From the NCBI GenBank assembly GCA_965224085.1, contig CBDCYI010000005.1:384001-448000 (forward strand): a stretch of DNA of 64,000 nucleotides. The letters run 5' to 3'. A program made the translations under genes and the position numbers. The stretch is from Candidatus Marinacidobacterales bacterium. GTDB taxonomy: Bacteria; Acidobacteriota; Vicinamibacteria; Marinacidobacterales; SMYC01. The notes below the pieces were generated by a model that made no database searches, was not told the origin of the DNA, and saw nothing but the letters and a program-made list of their open reading frames with translations. Positions within the stretch are counted from its first letter, which is position 1, and each line of letters begins with the position of its first letter. Positions 4,868 through 10,037 of this stretch are shown piece by piece.

Positions 4868-6790
4868 TCACGGACGCTGTCCCGTCACGTAAATCCGTTG
4901 GCGCGGTTTCACCTCTATGACTTGCTCGTGCCGCCCTCCATTGGGCCACTCGAAAACGAAGACGTGACGGCCGGCCGCAATAGCGAGACCGGCGATCGGA
5001 GGTGGCTCCGAAGAAATCCCGTTGATGCGCAAGGTGCATCGTTCGGGAAAGGCGCGGATCGAAGCGCTACCGAGCTCCGGTGCGTAGAGCCTCGTCGTCT
5101 GGCCTTGTTCGATCACGACCTCGAACTTCTAATTCAAGAAGACGTCCGGAGCCAAAAGCGTGACTTCGTGACGTCCAGGGCTGAAGGTCGCGACCGGATT
5201 GCGCGTCACTGCCGTAGGTGGCCCGTCGACGGAGCCGATCGAGACTGGGTACGGGCTTCGCGCCAAGAGCGTGCCCGAGATCGGGGCCTCCTCTTCTTCG
5301 GGTGCTGGCGGAGATGGTGGCGCTCCGCTCTCAGCGGGCGCTGCGACCGCGACCTCGCTTTCCGGTGCATCGCTCGCGATCTCTTCCTCCCCAATCTCAA
5401 TGGCCGCGTTGGCTTCCTCGGGCGGAGCCGATACCGGTTCCTCGGACGGGCTCGATGCGTCCTCCTCTTCGATGACGGCGACGGGTGCGCTTGTCTCGTC
5501 TTGTTTTGGCTCGGGCGGCGCCGATACTGATTCCTCGGGGGGGATCGGTGCTTTCAGCTCCTCGGCCACGGTGACGGCCGCATTGGGCTCCTCTTCATCT
5601 GGCTCGGGCGGCGCCGGCTGGCTCGGTATTCCCTCTTCGTCCGTTTCCGGCGGTGCCGAGCTCGCTTCGATCACCTGCTCTGGGATCTCCGGGACGGAAG
5701 CCGTCTCGGCAGAAGCGGCGCCCGGGGAGCCGGAGAGGACCTCTACCGTCGAAACGTCCGGACTGATTGCGCCAGCGGGCAGATAGGCCCGTCCGAGAAG
5801 TGCGGCCCCGATCAGTGCAAGCAAGACGATCGCCACCGCCGCGAGCCTTTTCGATCTCCCTCGTTTTGCAGGAGCGCTTTCGGCGTCGCCCCTGACGGTC
5901 GCGGTCATCGCCTCGCTCGACCCACCGGTCACCGCCACGGTACCTTGCGAGAGCGGAACGGAGCCGACCCTGTCCGAGCTCTCGGGCTCGGCTACGAGAA
6001 ACATTTTCAGCTCGTCCGCAATCTCGGCAGAGTGACGGGACTCTTCTTCCGGAGAGCGCCGGCGGTCTGTCTCCGCCCGGCCCAGCTCGCGGTGAGCCTC
6101 GCGTCGGATGCGCGCCGGAAGGACCAAATCGGGCCGGGCCGCCGACAATTTTTCGGCGAGCGGAAGGACTCGCATCCACTCTCCTTTTCGCTTCAGCTCC
6201 TCGAGACTCGCAAGCTCTCTTTGAAACGCGCGCTTCGGCCGCGGATAACTCTTGCGCACGACTTCGAGGACGGCGTCGAGCTCCCGACTCATCTCCCTGG
6301 CACTCACAAAGCGATCGGGTGTCTTTTTGGCGAGAGCGCGCGCCAGGATGTCCTGGACTTGCTCCGGAAGCTCGGGACGAGAGTCGAGAATCGGCGGCGG
6401 CTCCTCCCACACGATTTTGTAGAGCACGGCGCTCGCTTCGTCTCCGCTAAAGGGAACGCGGCGCGTCAGCATTTCGTACAAGATGCAGCCTGCGGAGAAG
6501 ACGTCCGTGCGGCCATCCAGGGGTTGTCCTTGCACCTGCTCCGGCGACATGTAATGCATCGTTCCCATCAGCACGCCGCTTTGAGTAATCTGAGGAGTGC
6601 CCGCCATTCGGGCAATGCCAAGGTCCATGATCTTCACGAGACCGTTGTCGAGGTAGCGTATGTTGGAAGGTTTCACGTCCCGATGGATGACGTCTCGTTG
6701 GTGCGCGAAGTCGAGTGCCCGGCAAATCTGAGAAACGACATCGAGCGCTTCGGCCAATGGAATCGCGGTGTCTTTTCGGATAACGGAAGT
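4868..6790 (-). pseudogene. Ser/Thr protein kinase, 3' part (subdomains V-XI, TM helix, Pro/Glu linker, PEGA-like tail), with in-frame TAG at 5129-5131
   Basis: IHRDVKPSN, KIMDLGIA, GTMHYMSPEQ, DVFSAG; reads PDVFLN*KFEVVIEQGQ in the same frame as ORF 4868..5116. Confidence 0.88.
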
Positions 6791-6870
6791 TGAACTAAGC
6801 CGCTCGCGCGGCGGCGGGACCTGCAAGCTCTCCCGAACTGGTGAGCCAAACTGGGGGCATTTTGCCTGCG

Positions 6871-7040
6871 CCTGAAGGAGGCTTTTCGCCGCAGCCCATC
6901 GCCCTTCCAGGGAATCACGGCGCGCAGGTCGTGTCAAGGGTTTCGCGCGCTTCGCGCGCCGGCTGCGCCGCCCTGGACACGACCTGCGCGCCGTGATGCG
7001 AGTCACTATGGGCGATGGGCGGACGGGTGCCTCCGGCAGG
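6871..7040. repeat. Long nested inverted repeat in the element leader
   Basis: Perfect 22-bp arms 6914-6935 / 6976-6997; outer arms gcccatcgccc 6894-6904 / 7010-7020 and imperfect arms 6871-6882 / 7029-7040. Confidence 0.9.
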
Positions 7041-7298
7041 GGCTCCGGACTCCGGGTTTTGCACGGCAAGCCAGCCGCGGTGAACTCACTCGCCTCTAAC
7101 CCGTTTCCCTTGTTTTTCCGGGCCACGGGAGCCAGAAGGGATTAAGGAGGACGGCTTCGCCGTCGTCTTCATTCGTTCGATCTTCGCTCCGGACAACGAG
7201 TCCTGCGTTTCTCGGAACCGCTCTCTCACACATGGCATCATCCCTGTCCCCCGCGGGCGGCGATGGTCGTCGTCTGCTAAATCACTGGAGGAATAATC

Positions 7299-8159
7299 AT
7301 GGGATGCCTTAGCGAAAAAATGCTTGCCGACATGAAACTGAAGGGGTTCGCACGCTCCACGCAGGAGGAGTATCTGCTGCGAGCGCGCCATTTCGCGGCA
7401 CATTACATGCGCTCACCCGCCGAGATGGGCGAGCCGGAGACCCGCGATTATCTGATTCATCTCGTTAACGAGAAGAAGGCCTCTCCGGCCAGCCACCACA
7501 TGTACGTCGCCTCTCTCAAGTTTCTCTACGCAACCACACTCAACCGCCCGGAGGAGGTGGCGAAGATTCCTTGGCCCAAGAAACCTCGCACGTTACCCGA
7601 TATCTTGAGCGGCGAGGAGGTCGATTGTTTGCTTCACTCCGTTAACTCCGTCAAACACCGCGCGATTCTCATGAGCGCCTACGGCGCCGGGCTGCGCGTT
7701 TCCGAGGTGTGCTGTCTGAAGCACTCCGACATCGACTCCAAACGCATGCTCTTGCACATTCGTCACGCCAAGAACTCCAAGGCCCGCTATGTCACGCTCA
7801 GCGAACGTTTGTTGAGCTTCCTGCGCTACTACTGGAAAACCACTCGCCCTCGCGGAGAGTACTTGTTTCCCGGCCGTAATCCTGGTGCCCACATCTCAGA
7901 CGATGGCGTTCGCTGGGCTCTTCGTAAGGCCGTGGCTGAGGCGGGGCTCACCAAACGTATCACTCCTCATTCGCTGCGCCACGGTTTTGCCACACATATG
8001 CTCGAACTGGGTGAAGACATTCGTACCGTGCAGCAACTGCTCGGTCATGCCTCCATCCAGACCACGGCCCGTTACACAAAGGTAACAGCAAAGCACTTGG
8101 GGCGCATCAAGAGCCCTCTCGATTTGCTGGGAACGAAGAAGGGCAAAAAGCTCGGCTAG
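7299..8159 (+). CDS. Tyrosine recombinase/integrase (N-terminal SAM-like domain)
   Basis: YGAGLRVSE (R), HSLRHGFATH (H-x-x-R), LLGHASIQTTARY (H/Y); RBS ggagga. Confidence 0.95.
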   Translation: MGCLSEKMLADMKLKGFARSTQEEYLLRARHFAAHYMRSPAEMGEPETRDYLIHLVNEKKASPASHHMYVASLKFLYATTLNRPEEVAKIPWPKKPRTLPDILSGEEVDCLLHSVNSVKHRAILMSAYGAGLRVSEVCCLKHSDIDSKRMLLHIRHAKNSKARYVTLSERLLSFLRYYWKTTRPRGEYLFPGRNPGAHISDDGVRWALRKAVAEAGLTKRITPHSLRHGFATHMLELGEDIRTVQQLLGHASIQTTARYTKVTAKHLGRIKSPLDLLGTKKGKKLG

Positions 8160-8165
8160 CTCATC

Positions 8166-9413
8166 ATGCAGCCCCATGGGCTGTGTCCTTCCCGCGTCGA
8201 GTCACCACCACGGCCACTGCTCGAGATCGCGGAAATCTTCCGCGAACATGGTCCACGCTTTCGCCAAACCCATGCGCTGACAGCCGAGCAGCGCAAGGTG
8301 ATGTGGGCTATAGAGAACTGTCGCACGGCGGTGCTAGGTGGCCATCTCGACGTGTGTAACGCTTGCGGATACGCGGCGCCTTCGTTTAACTCGTGCCGCA
8401 ATCGGCACTGTCCCAAGTGTCAGAGCCTAGCCCAGGCGAAGTGGATGGAGCAGCGAGCTCAGAGGATTCTTCCGACTCACTATTTCCACGTCGTTTTCAC
8501 CCTCCCGCAGCAACTCAAGCCTCTCGCCCGAGACAATCCCAAGTTCATGTTCAACCTCCTGTTTCGCGCCGCCTCGCGAACTCTATTGGAGTTCGGCCAA
8601 AGCCGGCTCGAAGCTCAACTTGCCTTCACCGCCGTACTGCACACCTGGACCCGGAAGCTCCTGTTCCATCCACACCTGCATTGCATCGTCTCCGGGGGCG
8701 GGCTCAACCACCCTCAGCAGCTGTGGAACGCCGCAAACCCTCGCTTTCTGTTTCCCGTCAAGGCCATGTCGCGGCTTTTTCGCAGCAAGTTTCTCGATGC
8801 CCTTAGGCTCGCTTACGACCAAGATGAGCTTGAGTTGAGCGCAAACGCTTCCCACCTCAGAAACCCACCTCGCTTCCGGGAGCTGAAAGACAAGCTCTAC
8901 CGCATCGATTGGGTCGTTTACAGCAAACGACCCTTCGGTGGCCCAGAGCAGGTTTTCAACTACCTCGGCCGATATACCCACCGGGTCGGCATCTCCAACC
9001 GCCGACTCATTCGCATCGACCACTACGGCGTCTGCTTCGCCACCAAGAATGGTAATACCGTTACCGTCCCCCCAGAGGAATTTATCCGCCGTTTCCTCCT
9101 GCACGTACTGCCGAAAGGTTTCGTCAAGATTCGCCATTTCGGCTTAATGGCCTCCTCCAATGCGACCACCAAGCTCGTAGTCGCGCGCCAGTTGCTCGAT
9201 GAGAAAACAAAACCCACGACCGACGCCGACGACGTGCAAGTCAGCTCGCGTGCCACCGAGGACAAGGACTGGCGCGAGCGGCTCAAGGAGCTCACCGGCA
9301 TCGACCTCACCATCTGTCCCCGCTGCAAGAAAGGTCGCATGCTCCGATGCCCTCTCTCCACGAAGCTTCGACGGATCAACCTCCAGATCCGCTCCCCTCC
9401 AGATGAGTCATGA
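8166..9413 (+). CDS. IS91-family (Y2, HUH) transposase with Zn-binding domain
   Basis: CRTAVLGGH, NSCRNRHCPKC, FHVVFTLP, LHTW...HPHLHCIV (HUH), YLGRYTHR (Y2), EFIRRFLLHVLPKGF. Confidence 0.95.
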   Translation: MQPHGLCPSRVESPPRPLLEIAEIFREHGPRFRQTHALTAEQRKVMWAIENCRTAVLGGHLDVCNACGYAAPSFNSCRNRHCPKCQSLAQAKWMEQRAQRILPTHYFHVVFTLPQQLKPLARDNPKFMFNLLFRAASRTLLEFGQSRLEAQLAFTAVLHTWTRKLLFHPHLHCIVSGGGLNHPQQLWNAANPRFLFPVKAMSRLFRSKFLDALRLAYDQDELELSANASHLRNPPRFRELKDKLYRIDWVVYSKRPFGGPEQVFNYLGRYTHRVGISNRRLIRIDHYGVCFATKNGNTVTVPPEEFIRRFLLHVLPKGFVKIRHFGLMASSNATTKLVVARQLLDEKTKPTTDADDVQVSSRATEDKDWRERLKELTGIDLTICPRCKKGRMLRCPLSTKLRRINLQIRSPPDES

Positions 9414-9654
9414 TCACGATGCTTTCGCTCCGCCTCTCACAACGCCGACCGGTCGTTGAAACGGACTCGTGTGTCTCGTCGCGAACTCATAACGCTACCG
9501 TGGTGGTTACCGCACCGGGTAGGCCCTTCTTCTATCTTCCCCGCCATATCTCTGTCGATTCGCAACTCCCTGACGTCCAACTCCGACTTCCTGTCCGACC
9601 GTCTTCTCACTCCAATTTATGCATAGTTGCCGCTAGCTGGGCGGCTTAGTTCAA

Positions 9655-9740
9655 TTACGGTTTGCACGAATGCTCGCTCTACAAGCATCGTGCCTCGCGT
9701 AACGCCGTGCTTCGCTCGATTCCTGCAAACCGCTATTAAA
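9655..9740. repeat. Terminal imperfect hairpin between the right IR and the kinase flank
   Basis: cggtttgcacgaat ... attcctgcaaaccg (13/14 complementary) with inner aagca/tgctt arms. Confidence 0.75.
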
Positions 9741-10037
9741 AAGGTCGAAGCCTTCGAGATATTCCATGACGATGTAGGGCTTTGCCACGCCGTCGAAATT
9801 GCCTAGCTCATGGATGGTGACGATGTTCTGATGTTGCAATCGTGCCGCGGCTCGGGCCTCGCGCTCGAAGCGTCGTCGAGAGTCCTCGCCGGCGAGCTCT
9901 TGCGCGAGGAGCGTTTTGATCGCGACGCGACGATGTAGCGACGTGTCGAAGGCTTCGTAGACCGCTCCCATGCCGCCTCGTCCAAGGCGGCGCACCACCT
10001 TGAATTTGCCGATTTTCAAGTCTTTGGTGAGATGCAT
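9741..10037 (-). pseudogene. Ser/Thr protein kinase, 5' part (subdomains I-V)
   Basis: [41 protein letters not shown]; homology stops at the element boundary. Confidence 0.92.

Follow-up and report, generated by a model that had tools for sequence, protein, structure and literature searches.

The 2,950-bp stretch at positions 6790-9739 (+ strand) of the window, the 64,000-nt segment of DNA analysed here, is almost certainly an IS91-family insertion sequence, present in multiple copies and active in the recent past, from a subgroup in which a tyrosine recombinase gene lies directly upstream of the HUH-Y2 transposase gene. This subgroup is already catalogued, with its mechanism uncharacterised, and the element is a new member of it. 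On the basis of sequence comparison, we propose with about even confidence that the two enzymes act in a chain, in which the transposase (Y2) would make a bottom-strand circle and the recombinase (Int) would integrate it via a folded junction.

The element extends from TTGAAC... to ...CTATTAA and carries both genes on the + strand. Int (286 aa, 7299-8159) matched the Pfam profiles Phage_integrase (9.2e-42) and Phage_int_SAM_4 (1.9e-14). The gene of the IS91-family Y2 protein (415 aa, 8166-9413) starts 6 nt past the int stop codon, and its product matched Y2_Tnp (6.3e-55), Zn_Tnp_IS91 (3.4e-31) and the NCBIfam IS91 family transposase profile NF033538 (407.8 bits vs. a cut-off of 125). The Pfam and NCBIfam matches thus confirmed an IS91-family element with an upstream recombinase, as claimed in a preliminary description of the window. 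The sequences HPHLH and YLGRY, which we take to be the HUH and Y2 motifs, are visible in the Y2 translation. The Y-x3-Y spacing of the protein agrees with Y249/Y253 of IS91 as given in PMC5714925. The left non-coding region contains an inverted repeat at 6914-6997, with 27-nt arms that are 96% complementary and a 30-nt spacer, and about 160 nt around it matched short multi-copy repeats of related genomes.

The insertion splits a Ser/Thr kinase gene on the - strand. The N-terminal part (9740-10037) ends with ...MEYLEGFDL, the C-terminal part (5129-6789) starts with SSVIRKD... after removal of the element, and the two parts covered positions 1-90 and 88-253 of the Pfam Pkinase profile, respectively. 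Removing either 6790-9739 or 6791-9740 (2,950 nt each) restored the kinase frame, giving Ser or Thr. Since the other genomic copies terminate in ...CTATTAA, the element was assigned to 6790-9739; the size of about 2,950 bp given in the preliminary description was retained, and its right end at 9740 was moved to 9739. Unitig breaks occurred at 6790 and 9739/9740 in the assemblies of three runs. A same-genus ortholog (locus L023 of genome G001) represents the empty site and reads ...EGSDL-S-SVIQED, with the codons CTC TCT TCC. By comparison with this ortholog, the restored residue, previously left as Thr or Ser, is Ser.

At the nucleotide level, the ortholog empty site reads GGAAG|AAAGG, with no target duplication. 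A paralog empty site has a single TT where the occupied counterpart has TT on both sides, and an empty site of a related family in another genome (G309) has a single GT, compared with two in its occupied counterpart. All three agree with the lack of a target duplication noted earlier for the split kinase.

The source genome contains five full-length copies, two near-full copies and many fragments with identical ends; a BLAST search of the element against its own genome returned 30 matching pieces on four contigs. The termini defined by the split kinase were the same at all junctions (13/13 left and 13/13 right), and none of the other copies found by BLAST had different ends or a target duplication. 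The six Int matches listed for the source genome were all 100% identical, which points to recent activity. The Y2 gene is likewise intact, and its copies are identical. The assembled contigs of four runs yielded no circle, empty-site allele or back-joined read.

The best PDB match of Int was the XerA-like structure 4a8e (1.4e-40). Against IntI4 (2a3v), it aligned in two stretches (residues 12-176 and 198-275 vs. 13-178 and 241-318), and the IntI-specific insertion is absent, with about 40 residues missing relative to IntI4. The NCBIfam XerA and integron-integrase profiles scored highest for Int, yet remained under their cut-offs (TIGR02249, 193.6 vs. 265). All catalytic residues are in place in the sequence comparison, by which Int is a simple Xer/integron-like recombinase. 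An "integron-like subgroup" of tyrosine recombinases is described as including those found in IS91 (10.1101/542381). A transposon of the Tn916/CTnDOT type was rejected, as Int comprises SAM-like and catalytic domains only within its 286 aa and the junctions share 2-3 letters at most.

The two ends of the element are related by a long-range inverted repeat. One arm is the left terminal 14 nt, TTGAACTAAGCCGC (6790-6803, +); the other is an internal inverted copy of it, GCGGCTTAGTTCAA (9641-9654, +), which stops 85 nt short of the right end. The 14-bp repeat reported previously is therefore real, with an offset of 85 rather than 86 nt. Overlapping the left arm is a subterminal palindrome, read directly as GCCGC-TCGC-GCGGC (6799-6812, +), which could form a terIS-like hairpin and has an equivalent in all relatives. 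On the bottom strand, the left terminus finishes with ...GTTCAA and resembles a classical IS91-family terIS. The right terminal module (9655-9739, +) is oriIS-like and consists of TTA, a stem 2 formed by 9658-9666 pairing with 9724-9732, a variable loop, CTAT (9733-9736) and TAA (9737-9739). This module is the best conserved non-coding part of the element, with 82-83% identity and the same end base in the genomes G012 and G029. The motif GTTGAAC noted earlier at the left junction is present, but its G (6789) is kinase DNA and not element sequence: the base preceding TTGAAC in the source genome was G at 4, A at 5 and C at 3 of 12 sites, so that the core there is NTTGAAC.

Seven further families with Int identities of 36-48% and a common layout were found in other genomes (G309, G423, G288, G280b, G169a, G169b and G341), and these were compared with the source-genome element as eight families. 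In the seven other families, the left terminus takes the form (G)TTGRAC plus NAANCCGC, and the inverted copy of the left terminus has the same arrangement in 7/7. In all eight families, a left (G)TTGRAC is accompanied by a palindrome, an inverted copy of this end is found inside the right end, and a second stem-loop is present. At 24 of 29 Int-homolog loci in other genomes of the phylum, a Y2 gene lies directly downstream on the same strand. Among the four plasmid relatives of Y2 listed (37-47% identity), an annotated integrase stands beside two, H1 and H4; none is listed alongside H2 and H3 in the PLSDB gene tables, which are incomplete.

Given the left palindrome, the inverted copy located 85 nt from the right end and the second stem-loop, a circle junction would fold as one long hairpin. 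In the modelled junction hairpins of all eight families, a stem of 14-17 bp has the ter-ori joint at its inner edge, and the folding was far below that of shuffled controls (z -2.7 to -9.3). When structures were predicted for each strand separately, the hairpins of the eight families contained 24 G.T pairs on the bottom strand versus 6 on the top strand. Predicted folding favoured the bottom strand by 6.5-7.1 kcal/mol in five of the eight families, but internal control windows of the elements also favoured it, with means of -1.5 to -4.7 kcal/mol; the junction was in the extreme ≤8% of control windows in only 4/8 families, and in the source genome the difference was just -0.4.

The insertion sites of the source genome are not random. 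Of 12 independent left flanks, 7 have ATAA at positions -10 to -7; with its genome frequency of 0.00091, P is 4e-19 for a single offset and 9e-18 when 22 offsets are considered. From -10 to -6, the prevailing bases in these 12 flanks were A (11), T (9), A (11), A (11) and C (8). The right flanks start with T (12/13), T (10/13) and A (8/13), and 10 of the 13 copies have TT directly past the right end. The target consensus is palindromic and is most informative at 7-10 nt from the cut, on the far side, with a 6-bp spacing. ATAA-N6-TTAT is the inner core of Xer sites. Judged by their letters, the insertion sites resemble the core of a Xer site, and they have a second half-site 6 bp away, which is tyrosine-recombinase geometry. 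The arms of the element's own site are dissimilar to the ATAA arms of its targets.

In the other families, an xxAA-N6 spacing was seen in G280b (3/3) and RTAR-N6 in G288 (2/2). ATAA at N6 spacing was found at none of six G423 sites, one of which has ATAA at N5, and G309 (six sites), G169a (four), G169b (two) and G341 (three) had no consistent target motif. GTT occurs at both junctions in G423 (6/6), G280b (3/3), G169b (2/2) and G341 (3/3); GTTGAAC is constant in these four families (14/14 copies), and the right flank in G423 is GTTAG in 5/6. Because empty sites were available only for the source genome and one G309 copy, the GTT pair of these four families is not divisible between element and target. 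The crossover lies 5' of TT in the source genome; at the one G309 empty site only GT is shared, and the side is not given.

In the proposed chain, Y2 would nick the bottom strand, which is complementary to the coding strand, at the oriIS-like right end, and rolling-circle synthesis would displace this strand up to the left, terIS-like end (...GTTCAA), where its ends would be joined into a single-stranded circle, like that of classical IS91. For IS91 itself, only the bottom-strand single-stranded circle is described as a functional intermediate (PMC13181058). Within the circle, the left terminus would pair with the inverted copy inside the right end to give an attC-like hairpin, in which stem 1 (14-17 bp) would be followed by a 4-8 nt asymmetric bulge and then by stem 2 with a variable loop; the ter-ori joint would lie at the inner edge of stem 1. 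Int would then bind this folded site and a double-stranded, Xer-core-like target, whose top strand would read ATAAC, 5 nt, the crossover and TTA. It would cut both bottom strands just after AA and exchange one strand pair, and the product would be resolved by replication. The outcome would be a copy-out/paste-in movement with exact ends and no target duplication, in which 2-3 nt are common to both partners at the crossover. Both inferred cuts would be on one strand, each where an arm meets the central region, and this region would measure 6 nt in the target and 7 nt in the element; this is the geometry of a tyrosine recombinase.

A two-enzyme mechanism of this kind, with an HUH-made single-stranded circle integrated through a folded end, had already been suggested in the preliminary description. 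It gains indirect support from the integron/Xer-like Int, the hairpin in 8/8 families, the crossover 5' of TT and the half-site 6 bp away, whereas every junction is equally compatible with HUH cleavage after AA alone. Somewhat more tentatively, the integrase-bearing IS91 elements may form a hybrid class, in which an HUH single-stranded circle would be combined with an integron-like recombinase performing one exchange at (G)^TT into Xer-like cores.

Within the known systems, the element is not separable in kind from the integrase-bearing IS91 subgroup, which has the same int-Y2 gene order on one strand with both genes inside the element ends. ISShvi3 and ISWz1 are presumably such entries, listed with an upstream "phage integrase" ORF in ISfinder/TnPedia. 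Among open-access papers and bioRxiv, no published account of the ends, targets or recombinase role of such elements was found. With classical IS91, IS801 and IS1294, the element shares the HUH-Y2 transposase, the lack of target duplication, a proposed transfer of the bottom strand, a terIS-like end upstream of tnpA with palindrome and GTTC, and an oriIS-like end downstream with a palindrome. In its classical form, terIS has a subterminal palindrome adjoining a terminal cleavage tetranucleotide (PMC13181058), which is GTTC or CTCG on the bottom strand. It differs from them in a target that is not GTTC/CTTG and an end 2 nt beyond GTTC (...GTTCAA), in the inverted terminus copy inside the other end with the joint in duplex, and in an extra recombinase with catalytic residues, and Y2 has an identity of only 26-29% to IS91/IS1294.

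Integron IntI is a close relative of Int. The predicted folded site resembles attC in its two stems, unpaired spacer, variable loop and excess of bottom-strand G.T pairs, the last of which attC sites are reported to show (PMC5027507). According to the same source, IntI cuts the folded attC bottom strand between A and C of RYYYAAC. Furthermore, (G)TTGAAC fits GTTRRRY, the inserted unit starts with TTRRRY, and the crossover lies 5' of TT (G^TT). In contrast to integrons, Int lacks the IntI-specific insertion, i.e., the segment that reads unpaired bases, and the unpaired bases of the folded junction are on the cut arm; the unit encodes its own enzymes plus a rolling-circle nuclease, and no attI, Pc promoter or cassette array is apparent within the 2,950-bp element. 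As in CTX-phi-type elements, recombination would take place between a folded single-stranded site and a Xer-type core in duplex form, and replication would resolve a single strand exchange (PMC9345347), but the element has its own recombinase, uses many dispersed targets other than dif, and is an insertion sequence rather than a phage. A Xer-exploiting element (IMEX) was rejected in view of its own Int and at least 12 insertion sites in one genome.

The same junctions could also arise by classical IS91 rolling-circle transposition through Y2 alone, with bottom-strand cuts that follow ...TCAA in the left end and xxAA in the target. Int would then be an accessory without strand transfer of the element, serving as a regulator or termination helper like IS91 Orf121, as a target selector tethering Y2 to ATAA, or as a multimer resolvase. 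We consider this reading less likely than the two-enzyme chain, but it is a strong competitor with substantial points in its favour. The left palindrome with GTTC, the right subterminal palindrome and the missing target duplication are as in classical members, and the bottom-strand ...AA of the left end equals the letters before the right end in 10/13 copies, which parallels the resemblance of ter and target tetranucleotides in IS801/IS1294. As reported in PMC13181058, IS91 TnpA is sufficient both to make the bottom-strand circle and to insert it, and terIS recognition in IS91 is modulated by an ORF upstream. However, none of the 13 right flanks in the source genome starts with GAAC or CAAG, so the classical GTTC/CTTG target tetranucleotide, which abuts oriIS and has the insertion on its 3' side, is missing; three IS1294 copies used as a control for this target rule had the flanks gtac, cgag and caag. 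A 5' tetranucleotide rule also does not predict a palindromic target 7-10 nt away, which the tethering version accommodates. An end-bridging inverted repeat is present in IS1294 as well, but there (n = 1; from three plasmids) the surroundings of the joint are mostly unpaired and no long stem encloses it, whereas a joint within a long duplex or at its margin, as modelled here, is a poor HUH substrate. The retained catalytic residues of Int and the Int-Y2 linkage at 24/29 loci also argue against a purely accessory Int.

Conversely, the element might be a small tyrosine-recombinase transposon moved by Int alone through a double-stranded circle, with Y2 a relic or only replicating the circle in rolling-circle mode. 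The Xer-like target core and the 2-3 letters common to both junctions fit this reading, and simple tyrosine recombinases are able to excise and integrate elements (10.1101/542381, section 17). It is nonetheless improbable: the double-stranded site has no second arm at the proper spacing, the repeats being about 70 nt apart, and 4 extra nt shift their register. The 6-nt regions adjacent to the crossover differ between element and target (CGGAAG vs. TATTAA in the window), which argues against two ordered, homology-needing exchanges. Y2 is intact, identical among the copies and conserved together with Int, and the G.T asymmetry hints at single-strand folding. Integration by host XerC/D-type recombinases at dif-like sequences, as for CTX-phi and with another purpose for Int, would explain the target shape ATAA-N6-TTAT. 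We regard it as very improbable, since the element encodes its own Xer-like recombinase and uses at least 12 different sites, most with one good half-site only.

IS91-family elements and the related ISCRs move genes by a poorly understood rolling-circle route. The value of the source genome lies in its many identical copies, its empty sites at base resolution and its markedly non-random target, in which 6 bp separate ATAA from the crossover. Together with the attC-like junction of the seven other families, these copies, empty sites and targets provide a specific, bench-testable model of the recombinase role. The two-enzyme model joins two mechanisms acting on single-stranded DNA, namely HUH rolling-circle transposition and integron/Xer recombination of folded DNA. 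Should the model prove wrong, the element would simply be a further relative of IS91 that carries an accessory gene. If the model is true, no mobile elements would be closer to the integron recombination system than the integrase-bearing IS91 elements, which would also be a plausible evolutionary source or descendant of attC-type recombination, which would bear on the origin of integron recombination and offer a compact system for single-stranded DNA insertion.

Two co-oriented genes, 6 nt apart, lie within the element. The upstream gene (7299–8159, plus strand) encodes Int, a tyrosine recombinase of 286 aa with matches to Phage_integrase (9.2e-42) and Phage_int_SAM_4 (1.9e-14). The downstream gene (8166–9413, plus strand) encodes Y2, an HUH-Y2 transposase of 415 aa with matches to Y2_Tnp (6.3e-55) and Zn_Tnp_IS91 (3.4e-31), which scored 407.8 bits against the NCBIfam model 'IS91 family transposase' (cut-off 125). 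The two flanks represent a single Ser/Thr kinase gene on the minus strand, as profile matches covered Pkinase positions 1–90 at 9740–10037 and positions 88–253 at 5129–6789. The kinase frame was regained by excising 6790–9739 or, equally, 6791–9740. The ortholog in a genome of the same genus (G001, locus L023) reads ...EGSDL-S-SVIQED with the codons CTC TCT TCC, corresponding to GGAAG|AAAGG on the plus strand of the window, and the terminus ...CTATTAA is common to all other copies of the element, which have the same termini as the window copy. Based on this ortholog and on the termini of the other copies, the element was assigned to 6790–9739, from TTGAAC... to ...CTATTAA, with nothing duplicated. 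The preliminary description had placed it at 6790..9740 (~2950 bp) with T or S as the interrupted residue; its left end was retained, the right end was moved to 9739, and the residue is Ser according to the ortholog.

A target duplication was rejected because duplicating 3 nt (AAG) would disrupt the reading frame of the kinase, and because neither the orthologous nor the paralogous empty site shows one, which upholds the earlier claim of none. For a second copy, the paralogous uninterrupted sequence contains one TT in the empty site, and TT is found at both junctions of the occupied site; one TT comes from the element and the other from the target, and therefore the crossover adjoins the shared TT. 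In assemblies of three public sequencing runs, unitigs break at 6790 and at 9739/9740.

A BLAST search of the element against its own genome returned 30 pieces on four contigs. Three copies are full-length and uninterrupted (the window copy, C5:571694–574634, and C9:172354–175292), two further full-length copies have a small IS200-like insertion behind base 5, and two are near full-length, one with ~140 nt inserted near position 175 and the other with ~80 nt deleted. A separate left end, GACAC, in three copies was rejected, since a ~540-bp IS200-like insert follows base 5 and TTGAA lies beyond it. The remaining pieces are fragments, and many of their breakpoints adjoin other repeats with 10–69 copies. 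As the breakpoints often adjoin repeats and truncation occurred from both sides, the fragments are uninformative on mechanism; an origin by one-ended or abortive rolling-circle transposition gave no signal either way, with intact-right-end and intact-left-end fragments both present. Int is 100% identical in the six matches listed for this genome, and the element is recently active. Among the assembled contigs of four of the 23 listed public runs (X1, X3, X6, X10), none skips 6790–9739 and none joins the right end to the left; such contigs are unable to show rare forms and hence are uninformative on circles. Relative to the window copy, contigs of the four runs lack 9 nt at 6874 and show two G-to-A changes (6981/6986), all within the left non-coding region; the window copy is therefore a minor variant among the copies.

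This genome contains 34 full-length copies of the ~540-bp IS200-like element (Y1_Tnp, 3e-40), and of the 34 listed, 33 have CTAA (TTAG on the opposite strand) after the right end. The IS200-like element lies at sites including C5:266798–267335 of this genome, G000 (L002:960–1500), positions beside C5:1596412 and C5:1631251, and, within a fragment of the IS91-type element, C11:1388870–1389402. Four of its insertions are in one heptamer of the IS91-type element, three at left termini (after TTGAA) and one at an internal inverted copy. Because at least two variants of the IS200-like element are involved, these insertions were independent, and they may reflect frequent single-strandedness of the heptamer site.

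The left terminus, TTGAACTAAGCCGC (6790–6803), has an inverted copy at 9641–9654. The inverted repeat noted earlier was thus confirmed, with its right arm 85 nt inside the right end rather than 86. A small palindrome (6799–6812) lies within the left end, and beyond the internal repeat the right end comprises TTA, stem 2 (9658–9666 with 9724–9732), a variable loop, CTAT, and TAA at the extreme end. With the ends connected to each other, as they would be in a circle, the left terminus is predicted to pair with the internal repeat, giving one long hairpin in the order stem 1, 4-nt bulge, stem 2, and loop. The modelled junction had a folding energy of about −40 kcal/mol on either strand, versus −18.0 (SD 3.1) in shuffles. 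An Rfam search of 6600–9900 at E values up to 1 returned no match. The left non-coding region also contains an inverted repeat with 27-nt arms (6914–6940 and 6971–6997; 96% complementary). About 60–160 nt around it (window 6894–7060) match short multi-copy sequences in the related genomes G001, G002, G003, G010, and G012, at 71–88% identity and outside recognizable element copies.

Searching 401 genomes of the phylum with Int gave 39 with a match at E ≤ 1e-40, this genome included. At 24 of the 29 Int-homolog loci kept from the other genomes, a Y2 gene lies directly downstream on the same strand; three distant loci (29–38% identity in the Int search of genome contigs) were left out of the analysis. 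The five loci without a Y2 gene in the 1.5 kb downstream are among L110 and L111 of G280, L076, L081, L085, L086, and L093; in some contexts, therefore, Int is found unaccompanied by the transposase. Two G280 copies have only 1274 nt in common. The right-end module was the best conserved non-coding part, with 82–83% identity and the same final base in G012 and G029. G029 contains this hairpin module twice (L035:1500–1640 and L051); the 1.5 kb upstream, the place of Y2, lacks any ORF of at least 100 aa, and a palindrome of the pattern TTATG...CATAA follows the module. The related palindrome TGTAGAGCTCTACA follows the G012 copy (L032:2690–2760) and precedes one copy in this genome (C5:277627–277642). 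Present beside three insertion sites, this palindrome is not a common repeat in this genome, where it has four occurrences at up to two mismatches.

Ends were readable in seven multi-copy families with 36–48% Int identity to the element, named here by genome: G309 (six copies), G423 (six), G288 (two), G280b (three), G169a (four), G169b (two), and G341 (three). All seven share one plan, in which a left end of (G)TTGAAC or TTGGAC is followed by a palindrome, and an inverted copy of the left end inside the right end is followed by a second stem-loop and a 7–9-nt tail. No duplication was visible at their copies. In G309, a single GT in the paralogous empty site corresponds to GT at each junction of the occupied site. 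Read from occupied sites alone, GTT is present at both junctions in G423 (6/6), G280b (3/3), G169b (2/2), and G341 (3/3), where target and element GTT are not separable, and TT in G288 (2/2) and G169a (4/4). For G423, no empty site was found, the sole ortholog stretch (in G348) diverging 45 nt before the junction. The G341 element (L125–L127) is ~4.6 kb long, ~2 kb above the others, with the same kind of ends, and may carry extra genes. An inverted-repeat search of a single examined copy of a Paraburkholderia plasmid relative of Y2 (H1) gave no clear ends.

A predicted duplex of 14–17 bp would contain the circle joint or have it at its edge. The joint is 0–3 bp from the inner end of this duplex in the five families with a usable walk (G309, G423, G288, G280b, and G169a), and the predicted fold gives 3 bp for this genome. 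Across the predicted hairpins of eight families, 24 G·T pairs fall on the bottom strand and six on the top strand, an excess paralleling integron attC sites, for which the available text of PMC5027507 describes more G:T pairs on the recombined bottom strand. The bottom strand was calculated to be more stable by 6.5–7.1 kcal/mol in five families and by 1.8 in one; in the other two, one being this genome, the strands differed by <1 kcal/mol either way. Internal windows of the same elements also favored the bottom strand (means −1.5 to −4.7), and the junction fell within the extreme 8% or less of these control windows in only four of the eight families. The modelled bottom-strand preference of the junction is weakened by this control and is suggestive only.

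To define the target, 12 independent left flanks and 13 right flanks in this genome were cut out by coordinate. ATAA is found at −10 to −7 in seven of the 12 left flanks and at none of the other offsets; given its genome frequency of 0.00091, the probability of this placement is 4e-19 for a single offset, or 9e-18 when 22 offsets are considered. From −10 to −6, the counts were A 11, T 9, A 11, A 11, and C 8 of 12, and the right flank begins with T (12/13), T (10/13), and A (8/13). The consensus ATAAC-N5-^-TTA(T) is palindromic around a 6-bp center, insertion occurring at one edge of the center, and we take it to be the inner core of Xer-type sites. The same spacing was found in G280b (3/3; ATAA, GTAA, and TGAA) and G288 (2/2; ATAG and GTAA). 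The G423 flanks had no ATAA-type half-site at that spacing (0/6), with one ATAA at N5; GTTAG formed the right flank in five of six copies. No consistent target motif was seen in G309, G169a, G169b, or G341.

According to the available text of PMC13181058, IS91-family members make no duplication and insert beside a CTTG/GTTC tetranucleotide abutting the right end, oriIS; the left end, terIS, is a subterminal palindrome beside the cleavage tetranucleotide, GTTC in IS801 and IS1294; and the only functional intermediate is a bottom-strand single-stranded circle. IS1294, the sole classical element examined, was 1688 bp in 3/3 plasmids, with GAAC and then the palindrome at its left end and the right flanks gtac, cgag, and caag, the expected bottom-strand targets. 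The present element resembles classical members in its right end, which is oriIS-like, and in a terIS-like left end that combines a palindrome with bottom-strand GTTC. Unlike them, it ends 2 nt beyond GTTC, and the classical target was found in 0/13 right flanks. In IS1294 (n = 1), a 10–12-bp repeat closes a largely unpaired region that contains the joint, whereas the joint of the present element would be inside the duplex or at its edge.

The best solved relative of Int was the XerA-type protein 4a8e (1.4e-40). Against the integron integrase IntI4 (2a3v), Int aligned in two stretches with ~40 residues of the IntI-specific segment missing, and the catalytic Arg, His-x-x-Arg, His, and Tyr positions aligned. 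XerA and integron-integrase profiles were the best NCBIfam matches, both below cut-off. These alignments agree with Smyshlyaev, Barabas and Bateman (10.1101/542381), who, in the portion of that text available, placed recombinases "found in IS91 and IS3 transposons" in an integron-like subgroup without the IntI insertion.

The cuts implied by the junctions are all on the bottom strand, just after AA: the element would be cut after ...GTTCAA and the target after the complement of its TTA(T) flank. In both, the cut would fall where a protein-sized arm meets a short central stretch (target, 6 nt; element, 7 nt). On the far side of that stretch, ATAA would form the second arm of the target and stem 2 that of the element. 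The two central stretches are unrelated (e.g., CGGAAG vs. TATTAA in the window), and each keeps its own side of the insertion. A tyrosine recombinase making one strand exchange, later resolved through replication, would be expected to leave such a pattern, as for integron cassettes and CTX-phi. Because the outcome fits such an exchange, we favor the two-enzyme scheme of the preliminary description, in which Y2 would make a bottom-strand circle, the junction would fold, and Int would then integrate it. The data show the anatomy, the absence of duplication, the target pattern, the family of Int, and the conservation of both gene pair and fold; the circle, its strand, the enzyme assigned to each step, and the single exchange are all inferred.

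A serious alternative, possible rather than probable, is transposition by Y2 only, with Int as an accessory that regulates, assists termination, or tethers the target, since an HUH nuclease cutting after AA would leave identical junctions and that of IS91 needs no helper. A modulating role has a precedent in Orf121, which lies upstream in IS91 and, in the available text of PMC13181058, modulates transposition and terIS recognition. That Int acts alone appears doubtful, and use of the host Xer enzymes for the reaction highly improbable.

ISfinder catalogues integrase-bearing IS91 entries, and the element belongs to this already known subgroup. ISShvi3 and ISWz1 are named as IS91-family elements in the available portions of PMC9229058 and PMC11322121, the former also placing one ISShvi3 copy next to an attC site. 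No account of the ends, targets, or recombinase role of integrase-bearing IS91 elements was found in the open-access papers and bioRxiv preprints covered. As far as could be checked, the pattern of ends, targets, and fold is undescribed, and it makes the question of the role of the recombinase testable.
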